Source: Naegleria gruberi (lineage: Eukaryota). Taken from it: DNA of 64,000 nucleotides. The stretch lies in the NCBI GenBank assembly GCA_000004985.1, contig GG738899.1. The stretch is one strand, 5' to 3'. Shown here piece by piece: positions 1-37,366 of the stretch (position 1 is its first letter; each line of letters opens with the position of its first letter). The notes beneath the pieces are model-generated. The model had not been told where the DNA came from. It saw nothing but the letters and a program-made list of their open reading frames with translations, and did no database searches. Position numbers and translations under genes: made by a program.

Positions 1-369
1 CGAACCCAAACCCAAACCCAAACCCAAACCCAAACCCAAACCCAAACCCAAACCCAAACCCAAACCCAAACCCAAACCCAAACCCAAACCCAAACCCAAA
101 CCCAAACCCAAACCCAAACCCAAACCCAAACCCAAACCCAAACCCAAACCCAAACCCAACCCAAACCCAAACCCAAACCCAAACCCAAACCCAAACCCAA
201 ACCCAAACCCAAACCCAAACCCAAACCCAAACCCAAACCCAAACCCAAACCCAAACCCAAACCCAAACCCAAACCCAAACCCAAACCCAAACCCAAACCC
301 AAACCCAAACCCAAACCCAAACCCAAACCCAAACCCAAACCCAAACCCAAACCCAAACCCAAACCCAAA
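1..369. repeat. Terminal telomeric repeat array (CCCAAA)n, about 61 units; C-strand on top means a left chromosome end, G-strand TTTGGG
   Basis: Direct reading: near-perfect hexamer cccaaa from position 1, with one variant cccaac near position 159. The array ends at 369 in a T8 run. Confidence 0.9.
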
Positions 370-590
370 CTTTTTTTTCATCGAGTACCTATTATCTCTA
401 GAACCACTTTGAGTTTTTATTAGCATATAACAGTTTGTCGATGAAATTGTACGCTGATTAACATATATAAGATCCAAGTTTTAAATATTGGCCATTAATA
501 AAATGGTAATGGGTTTTCGCCATACCCAAACCCAAACCCAAACCCAAAACCAAGGAGTTTAGATTGGAATGACTCCAAACCCAAACCCAA
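370..590. repeat. Subtelomeric junction element (~150 bp) ending in an inverted GGGTTTT followed by a short interstitial telomere tract (cccaaa x3-4, interrupted); copy 1
   Basis: ttatctctagaaccactttgag ... aatattggccattaataaaatggtaatgggttttcgccata, then cccaaacccaaacccaaaaccaagg ... ccaaacccaaacccaaacc. A homologous copy lies at 9586-9770. Confidence 0.6.
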
Positions 591-826
591 ACCTTTGATT
601 AATTCTAACCGTTCATCCATACGAATATTTGAATAGAAGTTACACGTTCACAGTGAACAGAATTTTATCATTTTTACAATCCAAACGGTTTTTATTGGCG
701 GGAAAAGGGAGCATTCTATTGTTTGAGGGAGCATTGCAAAAAAGCGGCGTGAACTTTTCAACAGATATCTAGATAGAAAGTATATAGTTTTTTTAAAACT
801 TTACTGAAAAACCTTTCCAAAAGCCC

Positions 827-3517
827 NNNNNNNNNNNNNNNNNNNNNNNNNNNNNNNNNNNNNNNNNNNNNNNNNNNNNNNNNNNNNNNNNNNNNNNNNN
901 NNNNNNNNNNNNNNNNNNNNNNNNNNNNNNNNNNNNNNNNNNNNNNNNNNNNNNNNNNNNNNNNNNNNNNNNNNNNNNNNNNNNNNNNNNNNNNNNNNNN
1001 NNNNNNNNNNNNNNNNNNNNNNNNNNNNNNNNNNNNNNNNNNNNNNNNNNNNNNNNNNNNNNNNNNNNNNNNNNNNNNNNNNNNNNNNNNNNNNNNNNNN
1101 NNNNNNNNNNNNNNNNNNNNNNNNNNNNNNNNNNNNNNNNNNNNNNNNNNNNNNNNNNNNNNNNNNNNNNNNNNNNNNNNNNNNNNNNNNNNNNNNNNNN
1201 NNNNNNNNNNNNNNNNNNNNNNNNNNNNNNNNNNNNNNNNNNNNNNNNNNNNNNNNNNNNNNNNNNNNNNNNNNNNNNNNNNNNNNNNNNNNNNNNNNNN
1301 NNNNNNNNNNNNNNNNNNNNNNNNNNNNNNNNNNNNNNNNNNNNNNNNNNNNNNNNNNNNNNNNNNNNNNNNNNNNNNNNNNNNNNNNNNNNNNNNNNNN
1401 NNNNNNNNNNNNNNNNNNNNNNNNNNNNNNNNNNNNNNNNNNNNNNNNNNNNNNNNNNNNNNNNNNNNNNNNNNNNNNNNNNNNNNNNNNNNNNNNNNNN
1501 NNNNNNNNNNNNNNNNNNNNNNNNNNNNNNNNNNNNNNNNNNNNNNNNNNNNNNNNNNNNNNNNNNNNNNNNNNNNNNNNNNNNNNNNNNNNNNNNNNNN
1601 NNNNNNNNNNNNNNNNNNNNNNNNNNNNNNNNNNNNNNNNNNNNNNNNNNNNNNNNNNNNNNNNNNNNNNNNNNNNNNNNNNNNNNNNNNNNNNNNNNNN
1701 NNNNNNNNNNNNNNNNNNNNNNNNNNNNNNNNNNNNNNNNNNNNNNNNNNNNNNNNNNNNNNNNNNNNNNNNNNNNNNNNNNNNNNNNNNNNNNNNNNNN
1801 NNNNNNNNNNNNNNNNNNNNNNNNNNNNNNNNNNNNNNNNNNNNNNNNNNNNNNNNNNNNNNNNNNNNNNNNNNNNNNNNNNNNNNNNNNNNNNNNNNNN
1901 NNNNNNNNNNNNNNNNNNNNNNNNNNNNNNNNNNNNNNNNNNNNNNNNNNNNNNNNNNNNNNNNNNNNNNNNNNNNNNNNNNNNNNNNNNNNNNNNNNNN
2001 NNNNNNNNNNNNNNNNNNNNNNNNNNNNNNNNNNNNNNNNNNNNNNNNNNNNNNNNNNNNNNNNNNNNNNNNNNNNNNNNNNNNNNNNNNNNNNNNNNNN
2101 NNNNNNNNNNNNNNNNNNNNNNNNNNNNNNNNNNNNNNNNNNNNNNNNNNNNNNNNNNNNNNNNNNNNNNNNNNNNNNNNNNNNNNNNNNNNNNNNNNNN
2201 NNNNNNNNNNNNNNNNNNNNNNNNNNNNNNNNNNNNNNNNNNNNNNNNNNNNNNNNNNNNNNNNNNNNNNNNNNNNNNNNNNNNNNNNNNNNNNNNNNNN
2301 NNNNNNNNNNNNNNNNNNNNNNNNNNNNNNNNNNNNNNNNNNNNNNNNNNNNNNNNNNNNNNNNNNNNNNNNNNNNNNNNNNNNNNNNNNNNNNNNNNNN
2401 NNNNNNNNNNNNNNNNNNNNNNNNNNNNNNNNNNNNNNNNNNNNNNNNNNNNNNNNNNNNNNNNNNNNNNNNNNNNNNNNNNNNNNNNNNNNNNNNNNNN
2501 NNNNNNNNNNNNNNNNNNNNNNNNNNNNNNNNNNNNNNNNNNNNNNNNNNNNNNNNNNNNNNNNNNNNNNNNNNNNNNNNNNNNNNNNNNNNNNNNNNNN
2601 NNNNNNNNNNNNNNNNNNNNNNNNNNNNNNNNNNNNNNNNNNNNNNNNNNNNNNNNNNNNNNNNNNNNNNNNNNNNNNNNNNNNNNNNNNNNNNNNNNNN
2701 NNNNNNNNNNNNNNNNNNNNNNNNNNNNNNNNNNNNNNNNNNNNNNNNNNNNNNNNNNNNNNNNNNNNNNNNNNNNNNNNNNNNNNNNNNNNNNNNNNNN
2801 NNNNNNNNNNNNNNNNNNNNNNNNNNNNNNNNNNNNNNNNNNNNNNNNNNNNNNNNNNNNNNNNNNNNNNNNNNNNNNNNNNNNNNNNNNNNNNNNNNNN
2901 NNNNNNNNNNNNNNNNNNNNNNNNNNNNNNNNNNNNNNNNNNNNNNNNNNNNNNNNNNNNNNNNNNNNNNNNNNNNNNNNNNNNNNNNNNNNNNNNNNNN
3001 NNNNNNNNNNNNNNNNNNNNNNNNNNNNNNNNNNNNNNNNNNNNNNNNNNNNNNNNNNNNNNNNNNNNNNNNNNNNNNNNNNNNNNNNNNNNNNNNNNNN
3101 NNNNNNNNNNNNNNNNNNNNNNNNNNNNNNNNNNNNNNNNNNNNNNNNNNNNNNNNNNNNNNNNNNNNNNNNNNNNNNNNNNNNNNNNNNNNNNNNNNNN
3201 NNNNNNNNNNNNNNNNNNNNNNNNNNNNNNNNNNNNNNNNNNNNNNNNNNNNNNNNNNNNNNNNNNNNNNNNNNNNNNNNNNNNNNNNNNNNNNNNNNNN
3301 NNNNNNNNNNNNNNNNNNNNNNNNNNNNNNNNNNNNNNNNNNNNNNNNNNNNNNNNNNNNNNNNNNNNNNNNNNNNNNNNNNNNNNNNNNNNNNNNNNNN
3401 NNNNNNNNNNNNNNNNNNNNNNNNNNNNNNNNNNNNNNNNNNNNNNNNNNNNNNNNNNNNNNNNNNNNNNNNNNNNNNNNNNNNNNNNNNNNNNNNNNNN
3501 NNNNNNNNNNNNNNNNN
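827..3517. other. Assembly gap (run of N, ~2.7 kb)
   Basis: Contiguous n characters. ORF 793..3933 is an artefact of translating the N run and the telomere repeats. Confidence 0.99.
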
Positions 3518-3897
3518 AAACCCAAACCCATTCCCAAACCCAAACCCAAACCCAAACCCAAACGCGAACCCAAACCCAAACCCAAACCCAAACCCAAACC
3601 CAAACCCAAACCCAAACCCAAACCCAAACCCAAACCCAAACCCAAACCCAAACCCAAACCCAAACCCAAACCCAAACCCAAACCCAAACCCAAACCCAAA
3701 CCCAAACCCAAACCCAAACCCAAACCCAAACCCAAACCCAAACCCAAACCCAAACCCAAACCCAAACCCAAACCCAAACCCAAACCCAAACCCAAACCCA
3801 AACCCAAACCCAAACCCAAACCCAAACCCAAACCCAAACCCAAACCCAAACCCAAACCCAAACCCAAACCCAAACCCAAACCCAAACCCAAACCCAG
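3518..3897. repeat. Second (CCCAAA)n telomeric block (~63 units with a few variant units), followed at 3898-3950 by degenerate telomere-like units (aaacccaacc, aaaccctagccc)
   Basis: Direct reading. Variant units: cccattccc at ~3530 and aaacgcgaaccc at ~3563. Same orientation as the terminal array. Confidence 0.85.
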
Positions 3898-3959
3898 AAC
3901 TAAAAATAGAATTCTTCTAAACCCAACCTTCAAACCCTAGCCCAAAATTATAAACTTAT

Positions 3960-4790
3960 TCAAATATCATTAAATTTTATATCATTCGATTGTAAATGAT
4001 GAGTAGAACAACGTGTTATATTTAGTTTTTCAATTTATAAAATATTAACTTTGTAAATAATATCAGATTAAAAATTTGTAAAAAGAAACCATAGGAAGAA
4101 TGATAATTTCAAAATCCTTTAATGAGATTATATAGTCTATATCATCATTAACAACATTTATAATCACTTCCATATCAAATTTCAAAAGTTCAAGTCTGTA
4201 GATATAAAAGTATCAAGTGAAAAGGGAAGTTGTGAGGTAAAAGAGGTCGACTATAACTTTTGAGTTTCTCATCAAAACATATTGAATCCTGACATGAAAA
4301 TGTTCCATTTGATGAGTAAACATCGAATATCAAATTTATTTTAACTTTCATATTTAAAGATTTCTTCCCTCAACCATCATGGTCAACTAGGGATGAAAAG
4401 GATGAAATCTTGAAAAAGGACCACCTATTGAAACTTTACCAAAATGATGTACATGATCTATAATGATATAGAATTCAATTTCATATCATAAAAATCAGAA
4501 ATGGTATCATGGGAAGGTAAATGTTGATATTTTATGGTTGACTTTAGAGAAAGACAAGTCAGACCAAGTCAATCAAATACATCACTTCAATCAACAAAAT
4601 ATACATGAAAATGCTCCATTCGATGAGTAGAGATAGATTATAAAGTTTATTTTAACTTTCATATTCATGATTTCAACTCTGACATACCATTCAGTCAACT
4701 GAGGGACATGAATGAAAATCTGGAAAATGACCACTCTATGAAACCTTACCATCATGATCTATATCACAAATAATGTTGTAGAGTTCAATT
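3960..4790. repeat. Subtelomeric repeat R750 copy 1, with internal ~230-bp subrepeats carrying the motif atgagta[ag]...atcgaatatcaaatttattttaactttcata
   Basis: ~90% identical to 11925-12700. Shared strings include aactttgtaaataat[ag]tcagattaaaaatt, ataaaagtatcaagtgaaaagggaag and gtgaggtaaaagaggtc[ga]actataacttttgagtttctcatcaaaacatattgaatcct. The internal subrepeat 4290-4440 resembles 4600-4760. Confidence 0.8.
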
Positions 4791-4924
4791 TGAGATGTTT
4801 ATAAGGTAATTTGTCTTTATAGGAAGGTAAATGTCTATATTCAAGGTCGGCCAAGTTCCTACCAGTACAGAAACCAAAAATTAAATAAGGCAAGAATTTA
4901 ATAAAGCCGAAGACCATCAAAAAA

Positions 4925-7070
4925 ATGAAAAGAAATCCCAAAGGGTTCTTGTCATCTGATGATGATGACGAACTTGTGGTGCGTTTGTCTGAAGAGCCTG
5001 TAGAAAATGACGATGACATTGAGTTGCCAAGAGATGATGAAAGTGATTCCGATGATGAACTAGACAGTGCCTTCACATCTATAATGTATGGAAATGATGA
5101 TGATGGTGAAAATATCATTGTGGAAAATCATNNNNNNNNNNNNNNNNNNNNNNNNNNNNNNNNNNNNNNNNNNNNNNNNNNNNNNNNNNNNNNNNNNNNN
5201 NNNNNNNNNNNNNNNNNNNNNNNNNNNNNNNNNNNNNNNNNNNNNNNNNNNNNNNNNNNNNNNNNNNNNNNNNNNNNNNNNNNNNNNNNNNNNNNNNNNN
5301 NNNNNNNNNNNNNNNNNNNNNNNNNNNNNNNNNNNNNNNNNNNNNNNNNNNNNNNNNNNNNNNNNNNNNNNNNNNNNNNNNNNNNNNNNNNNNNNNNNNN
5401 NNNNNNNNNNNNNNNNNNNNNNNNNNNNNNNNNNNNNNNNNNNNNNNNNNNNNNNNNNNNNNNNNNNNNNNNNNNNNNNNNNNNNNNNNNNNNNNNNNNN
5501 NNNNNNNNNNNNNNNNNNNNNNNNNNNNNNNNNNNNNNNNNNNNNNNNNNNNNNNNNNNNNNNNNNNNNNNNNNNNNNNNNNNNNNNNNNNNNNNNNNNN
5601 NNNNNNNNNNNNNNNNNNNNNNNNNNNNNNNNNNNNNNNNNNNNNNNNNNNNNNNNNNNNNNNNNNNNNNNNNNNNNNNNNNNNNNNNNNNNNNNNNNNN
5701 NNNNNNNNNNNNNNNNNNNNNNNNNNNNNNNNNNNNNNNNNNNNNNNNNNNNNNNNNNNNNNNNNNNNNNNNNNNNNNNNNNNNNNNNNNNNNNNNNNNN
5801 NNNNNNNNNNNNNNNNNNNNNNNNNNNNNNTCTGAGGATCCCATTGAGAGGAGATTCGATTTCATTCATTAGATTGAGAGACATTTCTTTCGAAATTGTA
5901 ACAGATGATGAATTAGATGATGGTACATTCACCATTAATTGTAATATGATCATCAGAAAGGAAAAACATATTGGGGAAGATAATGATCGTGAATTCAGAT
6001 TGTATGGTAAGAAGGATCAGAAATACTGTCCTGTATTCAATTTAATTAATTACCTATTTAGAAGAACTCCTAATCCATTTGAAGAATATCAGAAAGGAAT
6101 GAGTTTCAAATCTTTCTTATGCAAGCGAAACTTCAACCTGAATTCAAGTTTGAGTGAACAACCCCTTTTTACTCAAAAAGAATCAAGTAATCCAGCCACC
6201 TCCAAAGATCTTTCAAATTGGTTGAAGAATTCTTCCAGAGACAAATTGGGAATTACTTACTCCATGAGATCATTGAGATCCGGTTGTATAATCTTACTAT
6301 ATGCTACATTATGCATTATCAAAGGAACTCCAACTCTTGAAACAGGAGCATCCATTCCAATTAGAGCAATAGTTGGTCATATGAGAGACGAATCTATCAA
6401 ATTTTATATCAGAAAAGCTGTCACTCTCTGCCATAATTTTACTGACCTACAAGATGGTATCTCCGCAAAGAAATTGGATATTAATGATGTTGAACTTAAT
6501 TATTGTTTGACTATTCAGAAGTGTTGCTCTCATTCTGAATACTTAAAATGTCCTGAGTTTATTTCAAATTATATTAAGAACAATAAGGTTGATAGAAGAA
6601 CTTGGATTCCAAGAGGTAGGCCTCATTCTAATCCAAATTTAAAGAACCAACGCCACAGAGCTGCCACTGATATGAAAAAGTACATAATTGCAAATTATCC
6701 AATGCTAAATCTTGGAGATCCAGCTTTAAAAAGGAAAGATGTAGCATGGGAATCATTCTTTGCAGCATGTGGAACATTCATTACTGAAAATGAATTAGAT
6801 ATTGACCCGTATGCCGATTTATCCAAAGCTCAAAAACGAGATAGAAGAAACAAAATGTCTGCTTTGAAAAAGTGCCTTAATATTCTTTATGATGAAAGAG
6901 ATGATGATTTAAAGACCAAAAGTCAATCTAGATTGGATGAAATCATCGTTGGAGCTGAAGCTAATTGGGAGATTCCACAGAGTGCATATAATCCAAAATC
7001 CAAGAAGAGAAAGGTTGTTGCGGAATCTGAATCTGAATCTGAATCTGAATCTGAATCTGAATCTGAATGA
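4925..7070 (+). mobile_element. Crypton-like tyrosine recombinase gene, interrupted by an N-gap at 5132-5830. Acidic N-terminus, a tyrosine-recombinase catalytic domain, a KKRK nuclear-localisation signal, and an (ES)n tail encoded by (gaatct)8
   Basis: After the gap the ORF reads ...SMRSLRSGCIILLYATLCIIKGTPTLETGASIPIRAIVGHMRDESIKFYIRKA. This aligns motif-by-motif to the Cre/integrase box II region (HxxR...GxSIPxI...G[HW]...Y catalytic tyrosine). Upstream is a candidate box I / beta-hairpin Lys (REFRLYGKKDQKYCPVFNL). No reverse transcriptase or RNase H lies nearby, which argues against a DIRS element. Confidence 0.55.
5132..5830. other. Assembly gap (N run)
   Basis: n characters. All ORFs spanning it (5060..5953, 5128..5865 and the central part of 5088..7070) are artefactual in the X region. 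Confidence 0.99.
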
Positions 7071-7074
7071 CTAA

Positions 7075-7683
7075 NNNNNNNNNNNNNNNNNNNNNNNNNN
7101 NNNNNNNNNNNNNNNNNNNNNNNNNNNNNNNNNNNNNNNNNNNNNNNNNNNNNNNNNNNNNNNNNNNNNNNNNNNNNNNNNNNNNNNNNNNNNNNNNNNN
7201 NNNNNNNNNNNNNNNNNNNNNNNNNNNNNNNNNNNNNNNNNNNNNNNNNNNNNNNNNNNNNNNNNNNNNNNNNNNNNNNNNNNNNNNNNNNNNNNNNNNN
7301 NNNNNNNNNNNNNNNNNNNNNNNNNNNNNNNNNNNNNNNNNNNNNNNNNNNNNNNNNNNNNNNNNNNNNNNNNNNNNNNNNNNNNNNNNNNNNNNNNNNN
7401 NNNNNNNNNNNNNNNNNNNNNNNNNNNNNNNNNNNNNNNNNNNNNNNNNNNNNNNNNNNNNNNNNNNNNNNNNNNNNNNNNNNNNNNNNNNNNNNNNNNN
7501 NNNNNNNNNNNNNNNNNNNNNNNNNNNNNNNNNNNNNNNNNNNNNNNNNNNNNNNNNNNNNNNNNNNNNNNNNNNNNNNNNNNNNNNNNNNNNNNNNNNN
7601 NNNNNNNNNNNNNNNNNNNNNNNNNNNNNNNNNNNNNNNNNNNNNNNNNNNNNNNNNNNNNNNNNNNNNNNNNNNNNNNNNNN
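7075..7683. other. Assembly gap (N run)
   Basis: n characters. ORFs 6923..7690, 7067..7774 and 7071..7787 are artefacts. Confidence 0.99.
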
Positions 7684-8820
7684 ATACCAATTTGCATATT
7701 CTGTATCAATTTTACAGTGGTTGGCCAGTTTCCAAGGTCACTTATTAAGAAATGGTCAATTAACTTGCAAGTGACCCTTCCGGACACTTACAGTCACCAA
7801 AAACTATACCAATCAACTCTACTCATCGTCAACTACATTTTGATATATAATTTATTGACTGGTATGATACTTTCATATATGGTCATCTCAGCCCTCTAAC
7901 CTCCCATAGTAACTAAGGTATATACAGATCTCAATTTCCAGTGAGTGAATTTTAATTCTTTCAACTGTACCATGTTCCTGACATCAATTAGTGTATTCTA
8001 TATCAATTACATATGAATTGGTGATGTTTCCATTGACTTGAGTATACCTTGATTTGGTACCTTACCAAATATGGAAATGATGATATCTCTACTTCTACTG
8101 AATAGATTTGAATTGTTTCAACTCCAATACATTGCAAATATCATATAATATATTATGTATCATTTTCACTGTGGTCGGCAAGGTTTCAAGGGTAGGTCAT
8201 TAAGGATGGCCAATTGACTAACAAGTGACACTTCTAGACATTAACAGTCACAAATATCAATATCAATCACCTCCACTCACTGTCAGCAACATTTTGATAT
8301 ATAATTTATTGACTGGTATGATACTTTCATATATGGTAATTTCAGCCCTCAATCCATCCCATAGTACCTTAGGTATATACAGATCTCAACAAGTACTCAT
8401 CGAAATTAAATTCTGTCAACGCCAATCGATTTCTAACATCTAATTATGTATCGTGTATCAATTTCATATGAATTGGTGATGTTTCCATTGACTTTATTAT
8501 ACCTTGATTTGGTACCTTACCAAATATGGAAATGATGATATCTCCATTTCTACTGAGTAGATTTGAAATATTACAACTTCAATATGTTTAAAATATCGTC
8601 AGCAACATTTTGATATATAATTTATTGAGTGAAGTGATACTTTCATATATGGTAATTTCAGCCCTCAATCCATCCCATAGTACCTTAGGTTTATACATAT
8701 CTCAACAACTACTGAATAGATTTGAATTCTTTCAACACCAATCGACTTCTAACCTCAAATTATGTATCGTGTATCAATTTCATATGAATTGGTGATGTTT
8801 CCATTGACTTCAGTATTCCA
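7684..8820. repeat. Tandem satellite with a ~450-bp period (about 2.5 units)
   Basis: Three recurrences of the block: a first unit spanning about 7690-8140 that closes with ...aaatatggaaatgatgatatctc[tc]a[ct]ttctactga[ag]tagatttgaa; a core acattttgatatataatttattgactggtatgatactttcatatatggt[ac]at[ct]tcagccctc found at 7836, 8289 and 8607; and gtatcaatt[at]catatgaattggtgatgtttccattgactt found at ~8005, ~8455 and ~8770. Confidence 0.8.
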
Positions 8821-9585
8821 TTACATTCCCACAGCAGGATTTGAAGGATTCACCCTAATTGATTATATCCCTATGTACATGATTAATTTCAATTATTTCA
8901 ATTAGATATTATAAATCATGATGGTTAGACATGCAGGAATGAGTGGAATCAAGTCAAGTAAGACATTCATCCTTCAATTACCAATATTGTCAATTTCACA
9001 CAAGTTGACTTCCAAAAGTCTGCATATGGATCCAAACATGGTTTTTTCAATTATATATGATTATCATTGATATTAACTACAATTTCTAGGAGTTTAATAA
9101 ATTAGTATAGTGTTTCCATAGTATGGCTCAATATCTTGGTCAATTAAGGTAGAATGAGTACATTATACTAAGGATATAATATATTATACTCCCAACACTT
9201 CTACAAGGTAGATATCATCATTATACATCATATATATGAGATTGGTGATGATTCTAATAACATTCATATAATAGTACAATAAATGTTGAAAAGTTAATTT
9301 TAAGACATGTTGTAACTTATTAAATACACCGATTCAACATGATTAATTCATAATATCATATATTCATACATATATCTACAATATATTAAAATTTACATTT
9401 CAACCCAACTTTGAAATTTTAGACCTACTAGGGTAAAAACCTTAATATTTCAGGCAGTGCCTTATTATTTTTGAACGCAATGATATTTTTCAAATTTATT
9501 TGCGAATATAGTCAACTCATATTTATATCTACTACATATATTTAATCCAGACCGGCGATCTCCATATTCATAGAGTAATACCGGG

Positions 9586-9770
9586 AAAACCTAACTTTTA
9601 TTTTATCAGAGTTGATTATCTCTATAACTACTTTGAGATATGACTGCTTCGTTACAATATAAGCTTTTTATTTATATTTGAATGACATATATGAAATTCA
9701 GATACTCAATATTGGCCGTTCGTTAGTCGTCGATGGGTTTTCGTCTAACCCAAACCCAAACCCAAACCCA
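9586..9770. repeat. Junction element copy 2 plus a short interstitial telomere tract (taacccaaacccaaacccaaacccaatc)
   Basis: ttatctctataactactttgag ... aatattggccgttcgttagtcgtcgatgggttttcgtctaacccaaacccaaaccc matches 370-545, including the inverted gggtttt immediately before the cccaaa units. Confidence 0.6.
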
Positions 9771-11850
9771 ATCTTGAATATAGAAAACCACATCCTCAAT
9801 CAACAAAATACATATCAATCGATTGGAAATCATTAGTACATCTCGAAAATATCATTTATTTTATGTTTTGAAATCTCTCCTTTACCTCTTTTGGTCAATT
9901 AAGACAATTAAGGATGAGACTATAGGAAAAGTTACCAATCTCAAAATAAATGATAATATCGTGTTCCGCATCTCAAATAAAGTGGACTTTCTTCAAATTA
10001 TATATTTTCATTTCAATAAATGCATCCGTTAGATAGTACATGGTGATATTTCAATGGAATGGATGGAAATCTGAAGGATATAGAAACAACTCCATTTTCA
10101 CTGAAATTGATTTCATGACATGTAGACACTCTAATTAGTATATGGTATCAATTTTATGAATATTGGTTCAGTAGATGTCGACTTGTCAACTCTATCAATT
10201 TACTATAGACATTTGACATGATGTCATAGATTACACTCCAACTCACTCACTTTACATACAGTCAATCTAGAATTGATACCACATAGAGTATACATAAGTT
10301 AAATACACTGTATATAGTTTGGAAACAATTCGTATTACTTACAATTAGTCAGTCAGTTAATGTTCAATGTCAAAAGTGATTATATCCAAGTGTACACTCT
10401 ATCTCAATGAATGTACATCCTATCATCATGTAACTTTACCAGATACGTTTAATCATACTATTATACATATGGTATCAATTTAAGTCTATTAGAGTTGAAT
10501 TCAGTATGATAATAATAACAATCTGCCAAATTGTCAGATTTCAACATATAGAATATACTCCATCTCATTCATTTTACAAAATATCATACAAGTATCAAAT
10601 ATGAATACACTCTTCTTGGTGAGGAGAACAATCTGTGAGAGTTTCATATTGATGGCTCAATATCTTCAACTCAAGAACATCTAAGGTAATAAATAGGGAA
10701 GAATCTTAATTCCAAAATTAAATTTTACTATCATATCAAAATCATTGAATAATGAATTATTTATACAAGAATAATATATTCAATTGTTATACTCATGTCA
10801 GTAATCAGTGAAGGTGATACTTCTTCAACAGTAGTTTTCACATCTCAATATGTAGACAGTCAATTCCACTGAAACTTGAAATATTACCTATCTAGATGAT
10901 ATCATGATGACTCTCCATTGTAACATGCATGTGAAATTGAATGTTGACAGTTTACATCTTGTTATATTTATAGAGATGGTATCCAACAGAGTCAGTTCAT
11001 AATATTAAATATTGAAACTCATTCTGTATGACATGTTTGATGTATAGAACGGTTTTTTATTGAATATAATCAGTTTGAAATAATTTGATGAAATTGACAC
11101 TGTCTAGTCACCATTACATAACAAATAGACCATAGTTTACATTCCATCTCAGTCATTTCAACGAGTTATTGATTAATTCCACCACCATTATGTTTCTCAT
11201 ACATTGTAGTTCAGTTTGTATTTCAAGAGTGATTTCTGTGTAGATTATTATAATCGTAATACCTTGCAATACCAATAAAACTCAATAGAAGAGTTAATTC
11301 TTCTGATTTTCAAATAGATTATTCAATATAGAACACATCTAGATAGTTTCCATATCATAAAAGTCAAGATACTATATATGGTCTTTGATTAAATTTAAAA
11401 ATAGACTGCCGTTAATTACTGGAATATTAATTCAAAGCTTGTTGATCAAGCTATTGATTGAAATCAAACCGATTATTGAATATTGATCATTGAATTGGTG
11501 AATAATCACTCTTGATAATGTTACTTATTCATATTGCATGCAAATCAACCTGATTCAATCTACAAAGGTTGGTAGTTGCACCACTTCGTGGCGAAACTAC
11601 CATTCCACGATGAATCAACATAAGAATCACTTCCATTCAACTCAATTTGACCGTTATAATCAATAAATCAATGAAATGTTCCTTTATTAGCAATACCTAT
11701 TCAATCTAACGAGTAGATTCACGTCCCAAACATTTGACTTCTCAACGTCCATAATTCAAAAGTTAGTACTGACCTGACCTTTAAATATCTATCAACACAA
11801 GAAATGAAACCATCAAATTTACATCATTAATAGATCATAAGAATTATAAT
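9770..11850. repeat. Subtelomeric segmental repeat R2k, copy A
   Basis: Long collinear identity with 13055-15500. For example, atcttgaatatagaaaaccacatcctcaatcaacaaaatacatatcaatcgattggaaatcattagtacatctcgaaaatatcatttattttatgtt corresponds to 13055ff. Further anchors are at ~11220 (ttcaagagtgatttctgtgtagattattataatcg), ~11560 (gttggtagttgcaccacttcgtggcgaaactacc) and ~11700. Confidence 0.8.
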
Positions 11851-11899
11851 CAATGATATGAATCTTCACTAAGTAATCTCTTAAATAACCCAAATAAAT

Positions 11900-12700
11900 C
11901 AACTCTGAATCCTAACCAAACCCAACCATTAACTTTGTAAATAATGTCAGATTAAAAATTATAAAATGAAACCATAGGAAGAATGATAATTTCAAAATCC
12001 TTTAATGAGATTATATAGTATATATCTTCACTAACAACATTCATAATCACTCTCATATGAAATTTCTAAACTTCATGTCGGTAGGTATAAAAGTATCAAG
12101 TGAAAAGGGAAGATGTGAGGTAAAAGAGGTCAACTATAACTTTTGAGTTTCTCATCAAAACATATTGAATCCTAATATGAAAATGTTCCATTTGATTATT
12201 AAACATCGAATATCAAATTTATTTTAACTTTCATATTTAAAGATTTCTTCCCTCAACCACACATGGTCAACTATGATGAAAAGGTGGAAATCTTGATAAA
12301 GGACCACCTATTGAAACTTTACCAAAATGATTTATATGATCTATAGTGATATAGAATTCAATTTCATATCATAAGAATTAGAAATGGTACCATGGGAATG
12401 TAAATGTTGATTTTACAAAGTTGACTGAAAGGAAAGACAAGTCAGATCAAGTCTATCAAATATATCACTTCAATCAACAAATTACACATGTACATGCTCC
12501 ATTAGATGTGTAGAGATAGAATATCAAGTTTATTTTAACTTTCATAATCAAGATTTCATCCCTTTCATACCATCTAGTCAACTATGGACATGGATGAAAA
12601 TCTGGAAAATGACCTCTCTATGAAACACTTCCATCATGTTTAACAACTCAAATAATGTAATAGAATTCAATTTTAGAGTTTTAAAATGTAATTTGACAAT
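11900..12700. repeat. R750 copy 2, preceded by a degenerate telomere-like remnant (cctaaccaaacccaacca). A relic chromosome-end structure now lying internally
   Basis: Matches 3898-4790, including the degenerate tel-like leader and the aactttgtaaataatgtcagattaaaaatt...gtgaggtaaaagaggtcaactataacttttgag stretch. Confidence 0.75.
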
Positions 12701-13054
12701 ATAGTAAGGTAAAGGTTGATATTTTAAGGTTGACTTTAAGGATTGAAAGGTGAAAATCAAGATATCAAAAACATCACTCCAGTCAATAAAACACATATCA
12801 AAATGTTGCAAACGATGAGTAGTCATCGAAAATATCATTCATTCTAATTGGAAATATCTCTAATATCTAAATGGTGGTAAACTCTCCCTCAAATGAACAA
12901 ATGAATCAGCCAAGTTACCAATCTCAAATTAAATCATATAATCATGTTCCATATCTCGTATAATGTATATAATTCAGTTTTTAGACATTTTGGTAAATAT
13001 TCCATAATTCAGTAAGGTAAAGAGTGATTTATCAAGGTTGACTTGGGAGGATCA

Positions 13055-15500
13055 GGAGGAAATCTTGAATATAGAGAACCAAATCCTCAATCAACAAAAT
13101 ACATATCAATCGATTGGAAATCAATAGTACATCTCGAAAATATCATTTATTTTATGTTTTGAATTATCTCCTTGACCTAATTTGGTCAATTAAGACAATT
13201 AAGGATGATACTATAGGGAAAGTTACCAATCTCAAAATAAATGATACTATCATGTTTAACATCTCAAATAAAGTGGACTTTATTCAAATTATATATTTTC
13301 ATTTCAAGAAATACATCCGGTAGATAGTACATGGTGATATTTCAAGTGAATGGATGGAAATCTGAAAGATACAGAAACAACTCCATTTTCACTGAAATTG
13401 ATATCATGGTATGTAGACACTCTAATTAGCATATTGTATCAATTTTATGAATATTGGTTCAGTAAATGTCGTGTTGTCAACTCTATCACTTTATTATGGA
13501 CTTTTGACATGATATCATAGATTATACTCCAAATCACTCAATTTACATGCAATAAATCTAAAATTGATATCACACAATCTAGACATCATTTAAGTATATA
13601 TAAACAAGTTTAGAAACAATTCATGATACTTTCATTCAACCAATCGGTTCATGTTCAATGTCAACAGTATTTATATCCTAGTGAACTCTCTATCTCAATG
13701 AAAGCAGGTTCAATCATTATATAACTTTACCATATATATTAAATCACTTTATTAATTATATGGTATCATTTACAGTCTGTTAGAATTATATTCAGTATGA
13801 TAATAATATCATTCTTCCAAAAAGTCAGCTTTCATCACAAAGATCACACTCCATCCCATTCATTTTGCAAAATATCATATTAGTGTAAAATATGAATACA
13901 CTCCTCTTTATGTGGATAACAATCTGGAACAGTTTCATATTCATAGATCAATATCTTAAAGTTGCAACCAATCCATATAATAATTGAACACAATATTTTA
14001 ACGTAGATAAAATCGATTTACTTTGAAAAGTAATTTTAAAAATTATACGCCAAAATAGAGCAGCTTTCTTACTGGTCTTTCTTGTAGTGTTGAATTTATT
14101 TGTCCGAAAACCCAAGAATCTAAACCTAAAAACCTAAGCTAATTGAATATTCAATCTCATACCGGAAAAGATTCTTATTTGCGGAAAAAGATTCGAATCT
14201 TAGCGAATCTTCAATCAATTTCGAATGGAAACTGAATCTAATATCGAAATCTTTACCACTTTCCAAATAACAACGCAAACAACAAATACACCAAATCTCG
14301 ATATCTAGATAGAAAGTATATACTTTTTTTAAAACTTTACTGAAAAACCTTTCCAAAAGCCCAAGATTCACTTAAAGACTCTATATTAGATCATAAAGAC
14401 CATGGTGCCACCGAAGTAACAAATCAAAACAACTCTAATCCAAAACCTTATTTCCAAAATTAAATTTTACCATCATATCTAAATCATTGAATAATGAATT
14501 ATTTATACAGGAATCATATGTTTAGTTGTTATATTCATGTCAGTAATCAGTGAAGGTGACACTTCTCAAACCTAAGTATAGTAACATGCATGTGAAAACA
14601 TATATTGACACTTTTCATCTTGTTATATTTATAGAGATGGTATCTTACAGAGTCATCTCACAATATTAAATATTGAAGCTAGTTCTATATGATATATATG
14701 ATGTATAGAACTGTATTTGACGATGTCAATCCAGTATGAAATACTTTAGTGGAACTGACACTGTCTAGTCACAATTACATGACAAAGTAAACAATAGTAT
14801 ACATTCCATCTCAGTCATTTCAACGATTTATTGATTAATTCCACCACCATTATGTTTCTCATACATTGTAGCACAGTTTATATTTCAAGAGTGATTTCTG
14901 TGTAGATTATTATAATCGAAATATCATTCAATACCAATAAAACTCAATAGAAGAGTTAATTCTTCTCATTTTCAAATAGATTATTCAATATAGAACACAT
15001 CTAGATAGTTTCCAGATCACAAAAGTCAAGATGCTATATATGGTCTTTGATTAAATTTAAAAATAGACTGCCGTTGATTACTGGAATATTAATCCATAGC
15101 TTGATGATAAAGCTATTGATTGAAATCAAACCGATTATTGAATATTGATCATTGAATTGGTGAATAATCACTCTTGATAATGTTACTTATTCATATTGCA
15201 TGCAAATCAACATGATTCAATCTACAAAGGTTGGTAGTTGCACCACTTCGTGGCGAAACTACCCATCCACAATCAACATAAGAATCACTTCCATTCAACT
15301 CAATTTGACCGTTATAATCAATAAATCAATGAAATTTTCCTTTAATAGCAATACCAATACAATCCAATAAGTAGATTCACGTCCCAAACATTTGACTTCT
15401 CAAAGTCCATATTTCAAAAGTTGATACTGACCTGACCTTTAAATATCTATCAATACAAGAAATGAAACCATCAAATTTACATCATTAATAGATGATAAGA
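13055..15500. repeat. Subtelomeric segmental repeat R2k, copy B. It contains a ~480-bp insertion (about 13940-14420) absent from copy A; the insertion shares ...atctagatagaaagtatata[gc]tttttttaaaactttactgaaaaacctttccaaaagccc with 765-826
   Basis: Direct comparison with 9770-11850 and with 760-826. Confidence 0.75.
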
Positions 15501-16407
15501 ATATATTCAGTAACAAAAAAAGAAGGAGATGTTGAAACCCCAAAAAGAGTGCAAATAAATCAACCTCACCAAAGAAGAGAAAGACTAGTTCAGATTCAAA
15601 TCCATCCAAGAGAAAGAAGTCTAATCATCAAGAATCTGATGGATAAATTGAGGAAGATGGCAATGGAGAGCAGCATTATGAGGAAGAAGATTCACAAAAT
15701 TAATTCTAACAGTTAAAATTGTAACATAATAAAGGTTAAATCATATATTCGAATGAATTGAATATACCCAAGTCTACCTTAATTGAACTGGAAAAAAAAT
15801 TTCAAGTCGGGCTGCCTCCTAGTTAGCACCTTACTTTTACACCTAACCATTTTGTCCAAAATTAAGGATACAAGTTGAGGCTTAAAGTTGGTGGCTCACT
15901 TTTGATGTCATCTTTTCAAAAGTGAGAGTAATACATGGAGGCTAAAATGTTTGGTGCTGACTTTAACACTCTCACTTTCAAAAACTCCAGAGCATTTTAG
16001 TTTATTCGGGTAGATTATTGTTCATTTATTACTGGTAGCCACGAAGGGGAGATTCACTTCATTAAAAGTTTGATTTCAAAGGAATTTAAATAAAATTGTC
16101 ATCAAGGAGATATTAATGGCGCTTGAATCTCGTAATATTATGTAATATATCGTATTGAATAGTAAGCAATTAAAAAGGAGACTATAAGGCACATTTTGGT
16201 CTGATATACGAGCCGTAGTGATTATATTATTTTTAAGGCCGACATCCGCAATTAGATGTGTGTTTCTAAAGCAGGATGCTAACACTCGGGGGAACATGGG
16301 ATAGTGGAAATACCAGTTACGATTAACTCCAAAATGTGAAATTAACGAATTGTGCAGTAAAATTAAGCAGGATTACACCTCACTCAACAGAAAAACAGGG
16401 ATGAGAG

Positions 16408-24714: not shown

Positions 24715-25842
24715 CTATTGTTGAGCAGCAGCAGCGGCTTCTTTGGCAAGTCTAAGTTTTTCTTCTTTTTCTTGTTGTTTTTTGGCCTTACGACGTTCTT
24801 CCTTGTCTTTCATTTCCATAATGAGAGATTTCATTTCTTCGTCAGCAAAGCTTTGAACTTGAGCATCTGATTCTCTGTACATACAAGCAGTGATACCAGC
24901 AATCTTTTGAACACGCAAAGCGTGCAAGCACAAACGAGAGGCAATGTGTGAACTCTTAGCAATTTGTACAGCAATTTCAAATGAACGATGTCTGCAAGCA
25001 GTAGCACCTTCCATAACATCCAAAACAACTCCATATTCCTTAGCTTTTTGAGCAGTAATCAAGTCACCAGTCAAGAGCATGTATGAAGCAACTTGGTGAC
25101 CAACCAAGTATGGCAATAAAAGTGATGAACCCATACCAGGTGACAAACCAATTTTTACAAAGTTGAATGACATTTTAGCAGTAGCTTCCATAACTCTAAT
25201 ATCAGTGGCACAAGCAATACCGAGACCAGCACCAACAGCATGACCAGACATACAGGCAATGGTTGGAACAGGACAAATTCTAAGCAATGGTGACAAGAAG
25301 CTGTCATAGAATTGACTCATTCTGTTGGCATTATTGAATGGAGTATCATCAATTCTTTCTAAAAGGAAATCATAATCACCTCCAGCAGAGAATGCAGGAT
25401 GATTCATTTTACCTTCGGAATCAGGAGCTGGTGGAGCACCTGTCAAAATAATAGCTGCCAATCTGTTATTATTTGTAATTCTTGAACTTTCCATCAATGC
25501 TTTGAATTGAACAGCAGTTTCAGGACAAAGAGAATTCATCTTTTCTGGTCTATTGATTGTAATGACACCAATGGTCTTGTGAGTCATTGGTGTGAATCCA
25601 CTCTTTTCTTCCGAAAGTTTCAAATCCATTTCGTGAATATCTGAAGGATTAAAGTTTGAATTACTAGCCAACATTTTGATGCAATCAGTAACATCCAATT
25701 CATCAAATTGAACATATTGATTTGGATCAGTTTGTCTACTCATCATGGATGAATGAAATCCTCTCTTTGCTCCGAGGAACATGACAGAAGCAACCTTTCT
25801 AGTATTCAAGAGTGTACTCTTTCGGATCAATGAATTCATCAT
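24715..25842 (-). CDS. Enoyl-CoA hydratase/isomerase (crotonase-fold) family protein with a mitochondrial-type presequence
   Basis: IGVITINRPEKMNSL...AAIILTG...FSAGGDYDF...IACMSGHAVGAGLGIACATDIRV...LLTGDLITAQKAKEYGVV matches the ECH signatures. N-terminus MMNSLIRKSTLLNTRKVASVMFLGAKRGFHSS is Arg/Lys-rich and lacks acidic residues. The C-terminus is a K/E-rich coil. Confidence 0.75.
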   Translation of the reverse strand: MMNSLIRKSTLLNTRKVASVMFLGAKRGFHSSMMSRQTDPNQYVQFDELDVTDCIKMLASNSNFNPSDIHEMDLKLSEEKSGFTPMTHKTIGVITINRPEKMNSLCPETAVQFKALMESSRITNNNRLAAIILTGAPPAPDSEGKMNHPAFSAGGDYDFLLERIDDTPFNNANRMSQFYDSFLSPLLRICPVPTIACMSGHAVGAGLGIACATDIRVMEATAKMSFNFVKIGLSPGMGSSLLLPYLVGHQVASYMLLTGDLITAQKAKEYGVVLDVMEGATACRHRSFEIAVQIAKSSHIASRLCLHALRVQKIAGITACMYRESDAQVQSFADEEMKSLIMEMKDKEERRKAKKQQEKEEKLRLAKEAAAAAQQ

Positions 25843-31608: not shown

Positions 31609-34467
31609 ATGTGTTTCGTCCAATTCTCTATTATTTGTCTTGTTATAGGATTGTTATTGATAACAAAAACAAATACCTTAGCTAATGAGCAACCAAAGCT
31701 GACCTATGAAATGATCACTCAAATCAAGGGTTGTCCTTGTCAAGAAGAAACTGGTGGAAACCCACACCTCATTTACGATTTTGGTGGAGGTGACATGAAG
31801 AACGTAGCATACTTTTCAGGCCTAGTTTATTTCCTTGATCAATGTAACAACAAGATATACTCATATGAATCCCAAGAAAACCAACAAATCTCAAAAAGTA
31901 ATCAAGTTTATGTGAACTTGGTGGCAGGTGGCGGTGACGATTCGTATTTTAATGGCACACATGCTTGTAGAAGATTTGGATTTGCAGGTGATGGTGGGAT
32001 GGCTATCAAAGCTCTGTTTAATAGACCTGTTCATATTGCGATAGATCATTCAAATGGTGATCTGTATGTCACTGATCAGGGAAATCATGCTATCCGAAAG
32101 ATTACTTGGGATAAGACCATCAGTACTGTTGCAGGCATAGGCAGATTTGGTACAGATTCCTTTATTGATGGAGTTCCTGCTACAAAGGTCAGTTTGGATA
32201 CACCCATCAAGTGTGTGATCGTGGCAGGTGAACTGTACATTCAAGAAAATAGAGGAATTCTTAGAGTTGGTAAAGATGGTACCATTTCTATAGTTATTGA
32301 CATCAAGAAGCACTTTTACTATGCAAAGCAATTCGAATTGTTGACATTCGACATTTCCCAAGATGGATCCATTGTTTACGTTGCCATGAGCTTTGATAAT
32401 TCAGTTTTTATCAAGCAGTATCATGAAAGTAATGAAACTTGGACTCATGTAATGGGTACAGAAAATTCTGAAAGCAGTTGTCTCTCTCTTCCCAATTGGG
32501 AAGAAGGTTATTATTTGAATCCTTCCAATTATACACTCTGCCATGTTACAGATATGATATTTACAAAAGATGGAGCGATGATTCTCATAGACACTTATTC
32601 CAAAAATTATACTGAGATTACTAATTCTGATGTTCCAATGGATATTCAACCAATGTCTGCAATTCATCGTTTAGAACAAGATGGAACGCTTTCTGTATTA
32701 ATGACCTCAACTAGAGGCTATACATTCGGTGGACTGGGGGTTTATCCAAATGGAGATTCAATAATTTATACTGTCCAAGAAGAAAATGTGAAGAAAATTA
32801 TTGAAACTCATATTACTTGTAGAGAATATTTGAAACTGTCCAGTGAAAGAAGGAACTGTGTACCAGTATGTGACACCAGACCAGCTGATGATCCAAAGGT
32901 CTGTGGTGGACATGGCACTTGTCAAGATACTAATAAGTGTGTATGTAATGATGGTTTCAATCCTGAAACATTTTGTAAATCTCCAATGTGTTTTGGAGAT
33001 TTTTCAGAAACTGGAGGATGTTCTGGTCATGGCAAATGCGTTGATTATGATAAATGTTCATGCAATTATGGCTATTGGGGGGACAATTGTCAATATCCAT
33101 GGAGTTTTACAATTATCATTATTGGTTGTATCATTTTGGTTGTAGCTTTAATGTGTGAGTTCAGTACTATCTTTGGTTGTTACATTTACTTGGACAACAA
33201 GAGGAAACATAAAGTGTTGGAGGGTGAACATTCAGACATGCTGGACGACTACAAGAGTGCTCAACAAGATGTTGCCGATATGAGGGGAATAGTTAAAGTG
33301 GTAGAATTTACAAATGCCATTTCCAGTAATCAAAGGTCCACCTTCAATATTAATGGAGAAAGCTATCCATGTTCGTTTGAGGCAAGAAAAAGGTACTTAC
33401 ATATTGAACCCAATGATTTTGGTGTTAAAACTGTGCTATGCAACAATTTAAGGCCATTACTAGTTTACAGCAAAATCTGGCAATTTACAATAGAGAGAAA
33501 TGATCAGATTGCAAGTATTCGTAATGTTGCTTACTTTGTAAATAGTTTAAAATCCAAACCATCCGAGTCCAAATCATCTGAGTATGAAGCTTATCCATAC
33601 CTATTTGTGACATTGAAACACTATCCACTTAGTAACCTTTCCATAAGGACTGAAAAAAGAATTTTACAAAAACTGTTTACAAAAGAAGGAATGAGAAAGG
33701 CATGTCTTAGTATGGCAAAAGCAATAGCTCGATTCCACAATACTTTGGGCTTAATCCATTGCGATATTGCTCTCAAAAATTTCGTAATTGAAGAACTTGG
33801 AAATGGAGAATTAGTTTTCATTTTGATAGATTTTGATGCAGCAAGATTCATCAAGCCAGAAGATGCCACAAAAATGTTACAGAACAATAAGCGAGTATCA
33901 GTGGATAGTTCACAAGGAATCCAACCGCTCTCAGACAATTCCCTAGATGAATATACTATTTCACATTTAACAGGAAACGAGGATTACCAAAATACGACAC
34001 AGAGGGATCTTTATGCCTATGGGGCAACCATTGAAGAACTTTACGATATTTTCCTTTTTCAAATTACAAACATAATTAATGAACTCACTGATATGATTTC
34101 TAATTCCAAGTTTACTGAAGAAAAAGAACGTTTAACAATGGAGATTAAGGCATTTGAAGAAGTAATTCCAAATCACTCTGAAATGTTGAACTATTTCGAA
34201 AGCAATGTGAAGCCAATTGTTGCAAAATTGAAAAATCATGAGTATCAAACAGACTACAAATCAGAAATGTATCTCATTGAACTATTTTCAGATGAAACAT
34301 TTTCTCAAACTCTAAAGAATGAACAACAAGTTTCACCTTTGTCTCACAATACAGCATCAGTCATAACTCCACATCAAAATCCAACACAAACAACAACAAC
34401 TTTAAGCTCAAATCAACCAGAAGAGATTGATGATGAACAAAGTATTCTTTTGCGCAATAGAAGATAA
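31609..34467 (+). CDS. Type-I receptor: signal peptide, NHL beta-propeller repeats, EGF-like modules, TM helix, and a cytoplasmic divergent protein-kinase-like (probable pseudokinase) domain
   Basis: Signal peptide MCFVQFSIICLVIGLLLITKTNTLA. NHL units such as FNRPVHIAIDHSNGDLYVTDQGNHAIRKIT...ISTVAGIG. EGF-like CVPVCDTRPADDPKVCGGHGTCQDTNKCVCNDGF...CSGHGKCVDYDKCSCNYGYWGDNCQ. TM IIIIGCIILVVALMC. Kinase-like core LIHCDIALKNFVIEELGNGELVFILIDFDAARF; no GxGxxG/VAIK recognised. Intronless 952-aa ORF. Confidence 0.6.
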   Translation: MCFVQFSIICLVIGLLLITKTNTLANEQPKLTYEMITQIKGCPCQEETGGNPHLIYDFGGGDMKNVAYFSGLVYFLDQCNNKIYSYESQENQQISKSNQVYVNLVAGGGDDSYFNGTHACRRFGFAGDGGMAIKALFNRPVHIAIDHSNGDLYVTDQGNHAIRKITWDKTISTVAGIGRFGTDSFIDGVPATKVSLDTPIKCVIVAGELYIQENRGILRVGKDGTISIVIDIKKHFYYAKQFELLTFDISQDGSIVYVAMSFDNSVFIKQYHESNETWTHVMGTENSESSCLSLPNWEEGYYLNPSNYTLCHVTDMIFTKDGAMILIDTYSKNYTEITNSDVPMDIQPMSAIHRLEQDGTLSVLMTSTRGYTFGGLGVYPNGDSIIYTVQEENVKKIIETHITCREYLKLSSERRNCVPVCDTRPADDPKVCGGHGTCQDTNKCVCNDGFNPETFCKSPMCFGDFSETGGCSGHGKCVDYDKCSCNYGYWGDNCQYPWSFTIIIIGCIILVVALMCEFSTIFGCYIYLDNKRKHKVLEGEHSDMLDDYKSAQQDVADMRGIVKVVEFTNAISSNQRSTFNINGESYPCSFEARKRYLHIEPNDFGVKTVLCNNLRPLLVYSKIWQFTIERNDQIASIRNVAYFVNSLKSKPSESKSSEYEAYPYLFVTLKHYPLSNLSIRTEKRILQKLFTKEGMRKACLSMAKAIARFHNTLGLIHCDIALKNFVIEELGNGELVFILIDFDAARFIKPEDATKMLQNNKRVSVDSSQGIQPLSDNSLDEYTISHLTGNEDYQNTTQRDLYAYGATIEELYDIFLFQITNIINELTDMISNSKFTEEKERLTMEIKAFEEVIPNHSEMLNYFESNVKPIVAKLKNHEYQTDYKSEMYLIELFSDETFSQTLKNEQQVSPLSHNTASVITPHQNPTQTTTTLSSNQPEEIDDEQSILLRNRR

Positions 34468-36813: not shown

Positions 36814-36886
36814 AGCCCTAGAGATGTTTCGATCATCTGACCTCAACCTTATGAGGGTTATGCTCTCCCACTGAGCTACGAGGGCT
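36814..36886 (-). tRNA. tRNA-Met (anticodon CAU) gene with an initiator-like T-loop (AUCGAAA: A54, A60), followed by a T5 Pol III terminator
   Basis: Reverse complement: GCCCTCG-TA-GCTC-AGTGGGA-GAGC-A-TAACC-CTCATAA-GGTTG-AGGTC-AGATG-ATCGAAA-CATCT-CTAGGGC-T, then TTTTT. D, anticodon and T stems are fully paired. The acceptor has a G1:C72 pair and one C6:U67 mismatch. Confidence 0.75.
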
Positions 36887-37366
36887 TTGATCAACAAAAC
36901 CAAAAAATATCAAAATTATCGTAAACGAAAAAGATTTTAAATTCCAAAAATTCATTTAAATTAAACTTTAAAGTTTGTTAAAATTGGTTTTTACAATGTC
37001 ACCGTAGTGTGAACACCAAACTGTAAAGTGTTGAACTCGTCAATTAGAAATATTTGAACTTTACAATAAAAAATTCTTGCCTGAATTAATTGACAATTGT
37101 AGCCATGCACTTCCACTCCTGTTTTAAAGAACCATTACAATGAACATTTTTCCGTACAAAGATAAAATGTGCTAAGTGATAATTCCTTGTTAATAACCAG
37201 CTTAGATGTTTGGGTTTCCAAATTCTGTTTCTGGCCATAACAAGCTGTCATTCTACTTTATTGATCACTGACAGCTACCAAATGATTGGATTGAACAAAA
37301 ATAAACACTTCAAAAACCTCTTCATTGTTCTTTTTAAAAATAATAAATTTAAAAAAAACCAAACAA

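Follow-up and report, generated by a model that had tools for sequence, protein, structure and literature searches.

The stretch of DNA analysed here (the window) covers 64,000 nucleotides of Naegleria gruberi contig GG738899.1 (GCA_000004985.1) and forms the left end of a 331,038-bp scaffold in the Joint Genome Institute (JGI) Sanger assembly of strain NEG-M (ACER00000000), which consists of 784 scaffolds made from 1977 contigs. Its base composition is 33% G+C, and its long open reading frames (ORFs) are read in the standard genetic code. The window starts in a (CCCAAA)n array, called block 1 here, and a second array in the same orientation, block 2, follows beyond a scaffold gap; further in there are short tracts of the same repeat, a tyrosine-recombinase-like gene and a patchwork of duplicated subtelomeric blocks. 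We consider the start of the window to be, on the evidence given below, a genuine chromosome end, and block 2 to be probably a second terminal array that the scaffold shows in series with the first one. The telomere-like features and the gene beside them are the following.

1-370, + strand: terminal telomere array (block 1), with the C-rich strand as (CCCAAA)n and the G strand (TTTGGG)n running 5' to 3' towards the end
520-553, + strand: short interstitial tract of CCCAAA, about 4.7 copies, inside contig 1
575-594, + strand: second short interstitial tract, (CCAAAC)3
827-3517, no strand: scaffold gap of 2691 N
3518-3896, + strand: block 2, second (CCCAAA)n array, in the same orientation as block 1
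3897-3946, + strand: degenerate telomere-like junction, TAAACCCAACC, CAAACCCTAGCCCAAA, partly kept in a paralogous copy (1201-1218 of the metagenome contig VFQN01031297.1, called L001 below)
4925-7070, + strand: tyrosine-recombinase-like gene, interrupted by an N gap at 5132-5830, whose family adjoins telomeres in related species
9747-9771, + strand: interstitial tract (CCCAAA)4, in one contiguous contig and exactly at the junction of blocks a and b

The opening letters of the window are 'cg', after which (AACCCA)n runs up to 370. For 3-370, Tandem Repeats Finder gives a period of 6, 61.5 copies and 99% matches, with perfect runs at 5-154 and 160-369 and one A missing between them; the length of block 1 is a lower bound, limited by the end of a read or of the contig. 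Block 2 has the same period, with 63.2 copies and 97% matches, and its contig starts straight with (AAACCC)n. The proximal part of block 2 is perfect (54 units, 3569-3892, 324 bp), and its variants 'cccattccc' (3527-3535) and 'aaacgcgaaccc' (3561-3572) are confined to the 55 bases beside the gap, where the low-quality tail of a read is expected. Moreover, the 18-mer (CCCAAA)3 with at most one mismatch has 118 matches in the window, all on the + strand, versus 0.00 expected from 100 shuffles. All telomere-like tracts of at least 15 nt are C-rich on the + strand and lie in the first 9.8 kb, with none in the remaining 54 kb of the window and none on the other strand. No TTGGGG or CCCCAA runs are present in the arrays, which are pure TTTGGG. 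The assembly of the distal 7.7 kb contains three gaps, and its contigs are 826, 1614 and 1244 bp long.

TTTGGG was reported as the 'unexpected candidate telomeric repeat' of N. gruberi from the scaffold ends of this very assembly (Fulneckova et al. 2013, Genome Biol Evol, PMC3622300), and as the telomere of this species it is already known since 2013; the authors stated that the terminal position still needed experimental proof (PMC3622300). We reached the chromosome ends of relatives via homologues of the gene in the subtelomere of the window. In the nanopore assembly of Naegleria fowleri ATCC 30894, the 723-kb contig VFQX01000033.1 terminates with 424 TTTGGG units (2.5 kb) and the 516-kb contig VFQX01000003.1 with 275 units (1.65 kb), while telomeres are never mentioned in the paper describing this assembly. 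The 591-kb contig PYSW02000027.1 of Naegleria lovaniensis has 72 terminal units, and immediately proximal to this (TTTGGG)72 there are 16 copies of a 9-nt variant, TTATTGGGT (L012 17594-17732). In the case of Willaertia magna, about 8 units terminate the 410-kb contig JBEGDK010000040.1. In addition, a 5.5-kb contig of an uncultured relative has its TTTGGG end at the same junction in two metagenome records (ENA and JGI), with at least 18 units in L002. The G-rich strand runs 5' to 3' towards the terminus in every one of these contig ends. It appears near certain that TTTGGG is the telomere of this genome, and the window start is, as far as such comparison goes, a genuine N. gruberi chromosome end, with (TTTGGG)n as the telomerase-type repeat of Naegleria and Willaertia. 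The array would be synthesised by telomerase, and positions 1-370 would represent the inner part of a kilobase-long terminal array that was cut by the limit of the read or of the assembly.

These results bear on an earlier note made from the letters of the window (the original prediction), which had proposed a chromosome end capped by (TTTGGG)n with the C-rich top strand expected for a left telomere. Both proposals are supported, with the array at the scaffold terminus, the contigs of relatives ending in the same repeat and every tract lying in one orientation. The hexamer is also as unusual as the note had said, though it was already published for N. gruberi (PMC3622300) and is one of the two hexamers of Paramecium. 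A second block of about 380 bp in the same orientation and with point variants is indeed found (at 3518-3896, the variants only near the gap), and the degenerate units reported past it are present (3921-3946, 'aaaccctagccc' at 3932-3943 among them). The view that the roughly 2.7 kb between the blocks are unsequenced is right for 827-3517 (2691 N) and wrong for 371-826, which is sequenced and non-telomeric apart from two short telomere islands. Because this piece is non-telomeric, the suggestion of a single array comprising both blocks is excluded, provided that the scaffold is right and contig 1 is not misplaced. The third island, at 9747-9771, had been overlooked. The note had also left aside a further reading, in which each block is the terminal array of a different molecule; we consider this somewhat more probable than an interstitial block 2.

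The blocks of the subtelomere were defined by comparing the window with itself and are arranged as follows.

371-524, + strand: block a'', telomere-adjacent unique DNA, 68-75% identical to block a at 9590-9746
764-826, + strand: block x'', 98.4% identical to x' at 14300-14362 and reaching the end of contig 1
4044-4841, + strand: block e'', with internal repeats of about 310 bp, 88.5% identical to e at 11928-12723
7696-8819, + strand: subtelomeric tandem repeat of about 455 bp, 2.5 copies at 80-90% identity
9590-9746, + strand: internal copy of block a
9770-15509, + strand: duplicated subtelomeric unit
9770-10669: block b, matching b' at 13061-13960 (85%)
10702-10824: block c, matching c' at 14444-14566 (91%)
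10917-11852: block d, matching d' at 14578-15509 (91%)

There is no long ORF in blocks a-e and x. The stretch over which a'' and a are homologous extends from the telomere junction as far as the following telomere island. In the window, b-c-d-e forms a repeated unit, and between the units, block 2 aside, only weak telomere remnants occur; telomere-like sequence of this weak kind is seen at about 11905-11925 and 14104-14140. A metagenome scan with block e found one contig, L001, which contains, in this order, the end of b, other DNA of about 1 kb, short remnants of telomere sequence, e and again b. Window 3966-4791, which is wider than e'', is 92.7% identical to L001 1218-2039. No further copies of block a were found in the metagenome scan, and block a showed no homology to the DNA beside the telomere in N. 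fowleri or in the uncultured relative (L002). Furthermore, a 4.9-kb segment (about 4856-9771) stands between e'' and b in place of about 25 bp, compared with L001 2039-2120 and window 12723-13061, where e passes straight into b. This segment contains the recombinase-like gene, the 455-bp tandem repeats, unique DNA, block a and (CCCAAA)4, and it looks like an insertion.

The short INTERSTITIAL tracts in this patchwork subtelomere (520-553, 575-594 and 9747-9771) are real, each having non-telomeric DNA on both sides within contiguous sequence. Each of the two copies of block a is succeeded by (CCCAAA)4, and the homology of the two copies ends there (window 525-548 versus 9747-9771). Block b starts directly after the tract at 9771, and the other copies of b continue upstream into e-type repeats. 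In N. fowleri, the homology between two chromosome ends begins exactly at a 15-bp GGGTTTGGGTTTGGG tract (L006 7000, L007 8897); from this point L006 7000-11660 and L007 8897-11660 are shared to the telomere, and the DNA proximal to it is unrelated. The terminal 2.06 kb of the two ends are 99.7% identical, together with a 700-bp block at 93%, and L006 has an extra 1.9-kb piece with a reverse transcriptase (RT)/RNase H ORF (7722-9554, minus strand). None of the verified internal tracts is long; those in the window measure 20-36 bp, and the one in N. fowleri measures 15 bp. In W. magna, a degenerate telomere-like patch of about 95 bp in the same orientation (L013 12970-13065) lies about 0.8 kb inside the terminal array. 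Because the homology between ends starts exactly at a short telomere tract in the window as well as in N. fowleri, the simplest mechanism would be one of copying, in which an eroded or broken end that keeps a few repeats would serve as the primer for copying what lies distally on another end, by telomere-primed recombination or break-induced replication, and the short tract would be left as a relic. We also tried reading 'CCCAAAC-TTTTTTTT' as the trace of a poly(A)-tailed long interspersed nuclear element (LINE) and rejected it: the A8 run is placed distally on the G strand, contrary to what overhang-primed retrotransposition would give, and it is 8 nt only.

The ORF at 4925-7070 shows the catalytic-domain fold and the residues R-K-(H/R)-R-(H/W)-Y of tyrosine recombinases, a likeness that comes through fold comparison only. 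The ORF itself has no Pfam match, and its relatives have Pfam matches below threshold only (NDC10_II, Phage_integrase and Phage_int_SAM_4). A profile search against the PDB sequences found no recombinase, with a single match to NUG1 at chance level (E 1.3), and a word-index homology search with the ORF gave no match; the family was found by exhaustive HMMER search. All family members that have a contig terminus in their context lie 0.08-5.7 kb from a TTTGGG terminus. The copy in N. fowleri is cut short 81 bp before the array and is without the C-terminal catalytic motifs; the RT/RNase H ORF lies beside it on the opposite strand. No RT is found in the sequenced parts of the window. The gene is directed towards the telomere in N. 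fowleri and L002, and away from the telomere in the window.

How the two arrays came to stand where they do can be explained in several ways. That the CCCAAA arrays are an internal satellite, within which the scaffold happens to start by chance, is extremely improbable. The reservation of the 2013 authors, for whom the terminal location in N. gruberi awaits an experimental test (PMC3622300), would leave room for it, but the array is terminal in six sequence records from five taxa with the G strand always outward, and in N. fowleri it terminates nanopore contigs of 723 kb and 516 kb. Moreover, the repeat has the TxGy form of telomerase repeats and within the 64 kb is restricted to the subtelomere in a single orientation. 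For block 2, we assume that blocks 1 and 2 are two terminal arrays shown in series, so that block 2 would not be INTERSTITIAL, and we put the probability of this at about 0.55-0.6. Block 2 would then be the inner edge of a long, homogeneous, telomerase-maintained array, a real telomere sitting directly on e'', and contig 1 (1-826) would derive from another molecule, either the homologous chromosome or a paralogous end with one more subtelomeric unit; alternatively, contig 1 might have been hooked on via mate reads lying wholly inside telomere repeats. Since real arrays extend over at least 1.65-2.5 kb in N. fowleri, a 3-kb clone anchored in e'' could have a pure-telomere mate read, which would merge into the array of contig 1 in the observed orientation and at about the observed distance. 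In a variant that would reconcile both views, homologues, or paralogous ends whose e'' was collapsed by the assembler, would differ by one distal unit, both arrays being terminal. Block 2, at least 379 bp long, is neither short nor degenerate, its degenerate units standing at the proximal junction only, and both blocks measure about 370-380 bp, which is the reach of reads anchored in unique DNA. On its distal side block 2 borders on the N gap at 827-3517, and non-telomeric flanking DNA is seen proximally only.

If the scaffold is correct, block 2 would instead be a true, young and large interstitial array, and the molecule would consist of the telomere, a distal unit of about 3 kb (a'', x'' and probably c and d), an internal array of at least 0.4 kb, and e''. 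It would have originated very recently, when a still-long telomere invaded a tract in another subtelomere and copied its distal part, resembling the amplification of yeast Y' through internal TG1-3 tracts. Several observations favour this and weigh against a terminal block 2. Contigs 1 and 2 were joined by the scaffolder across a gap of definite estimated size, possibly with real clones behind it. The order x''...e'' agrees with that of the internal copies, x'-c'-d' and d-(telomere-like remnant)-e, with telomere-like remnants at the homologous position between d and e, and the missing c and d (about 1.2 kb) would fit the gap, as for a true extra distal unit on one molecule. In L001 and in the internal copy alike, e has telomere remnants immediately upstream, which implies that tracts have been internalised here before; that this happened repeatedly at block junctions is demonstrated both for the window and for N. 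fowleri. In addition, x'' is 98% identical to x' on the same scaffold, and the terminal claim is drawn from the assembled sequence. However, the 54 perfect units of block 2 make it more than ten times longer than every verified internal tract (15-36 bp), and no large perfect internal block comparable to it occurs within 10-17 kb at any of four contig ends of relatives. No read crosses the array, and its orientation and spacing are exactly those that a mis-join through telomere mates would give. Given a divergence of 7-12% between the paralogous e blocks and the decay of their telomere remnants, the event would need to be very young. We regard an interstitial block 2 as less likely than a terminal one. 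Quite unlikely, in our estimate, is an origin of the distal DNA separating the arrays as a mobile element attached to telomeres. This would be a retroelement for which the G-strand overhang serves as primer, as in the Penelope-like Athena, or else a tyrosine-recombinase element; in either case telomere repeats would border it proximally, and on its distal side it would receive a new telomere. Block a does abut (CCCAAA)4 proximally in two unrelated contexts, the 4.9-kb segment with the recombinase-like gene and the ending a+(CCCAAA)4 is inserted between e'' and b, and the RT/RNase H ORF of N. fowleri lies between the 15-bp tract and the telomere in the orientation that overhang-primed reverse transcription would require. 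But the sequenced parts of the window are without RT, block a is without detectable homology to the block of N. fowleri or to L002, the recombinase gene is oriented differently in the window than in N. fowleri and L002, and plain recombination accounts for the same junctions; the termini, target duplications and copy number of such an element could not be defined. A more far-reaching scheme, in which the ends of Naegleria and Willaertia (Vahlkampfiidae) would be renewed by stepwise telomere-primed addition of units, block 2 would be a freshly internalised full-length telomere, and the recombinase-like family would be an end-specific mobile or domesticated element taking part in this turnover, is speculative and in our view unlikely.

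The original prediction had also advised a search for the telomerase RNA template. When run on the window, this search gave a single 10-mer, AAACCCAAAC (37208, minus strand), the only template-like 10-mer outside the arrays and one at chance level. This candidate was rejected: its fold has z = -1.8, the prediction places its 'template' in a paired region, and no conservation was seen upstream of orthologous or paralogous strictosidine-synthase-like genes (close relative and N. lovaniensis). No Rfam telomerase family matched in the window, and neither a telomerase RNA nor a TERT gene was found in it. The place of the 10-mer and one of the ORFs that tie the window to N. gruberi are given below.

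24715-25842, - strand: enoyl-CoA hydratase ORF, 100% identical over the full length to an N. gruberi protein
37066-37300, - strand: intergenic stretch beside a tRNA (36814-36885, - strand), with an 8-bp hairpin AGCTGTCA/TGACAGCT, the 10-mer AAACCCAAAC and a downstream T run

The enoyl-CoA hydratase is recorded on the scaffold of 331,038 bp, and a second ORF of the window matches, at 100% identity, an N. gruberi strictosidine synthase from that scaffold. Other genes were also noticed. The minus-strand ORF at 52555-56226 (1223 amino acids) carries an N-terminal domain of the TNP-like RNase H type (Pfam E 1.5e-5) together with numerous Cys-rich repeats, and is probably a transposase-derived gene. 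Several large NHL/beta-propeller repeat proteins are encoded at 46026-50141 (minus strand) and 31609-34467 (plus strand), two of which carry fused C-termini of protein-kinase-like type; together the genes resemble a local receptor-kinase-like family. In N. lovaniensis, a pogo-like DDE transposase ORF lies at L012 12023-13285.

Taken as a whole, the region is a genuine, already published telomere at an ordinary, duplication-rich subtelomere. TTTGGG is backed by terminal arrays in the assemblies of three related species and is a reliable marker for the completeness of Naegleria assemblies. The recombinase-like family, which stands beside the telomere in all the ends examined, offers a lead for subtelomere dynamics and mobile elements in Heterolobosea. 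Block 2 should not be cited as an interstitial telomere without read-level proof.

The repeat and its surroundings can be compared with several known systems. Paramecium telomeres are built of two hexamers, TTGGGG and TTTGGG, which are mixed, and TTTGGG is accordingly one of the two hexamers of its macronuclear telomeres. However, TTTGGG arises there from misincorporation or stuttering on a TTGGGG-type template, whereas the N. gruberi arrays are pure TTTGGG, and the window uses the standard genetic code and encodes Naegleria proteins. We therefore rejected a Paramecium-type ciliate telomere on account of the long standard-code ORFs, the pure TTTGGG arrays and the 100% identity to N. gruberi proteins. 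Interstitial telomere tracts in subtelomeres are commonplace, and in human subtelomeres and at the X-Y' and Y'-Y' junctions of yeast they lie at duplication boundaries. The window resembles these in having short tracts of terminal orientation where the homology of duplicated blocks starts or stops, and in having a kilobase-sized tandem unit near the end. It differs in that its units contain no Y'-type helicase ORF, the only gene being the recombinase-like one, and in that they are mostly non-coding and are not known to be related in sequence to the yeast and human elements. In comparison with Crypton and DIRS/Ngaro elements, the recombinase-like gene belongs to no Pfam family at the cut-off, the copy in the window is without RT, and the element termini are not defined; a consistent location beside telomeres has, to our knowledge, not been described for Cryptons or DIRS elements. 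The distal end of the scaffold is also like the joins that Sanger shotgun assemblies make through telomeric repeats, with a tiny telomere contig, an N gap of about one clone length, and then a contig with an array in the same orientation, in a region of low contiguity; the mis-join proposed here would be read from the assembled sequence itself. The closest comparison is with Fulneckova et al. 2013, who worked on the same organism, assembly and repeat and reasoned likewise from a minisatellite rich in TG that occupies scaffold ends in the proper orientation. Their study concerned the motif only, whereas the present analysis also follows it to the ends of contigs from N. fowleri, N. lovaniensis and W. 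magna and describes how one subtelomere is built.

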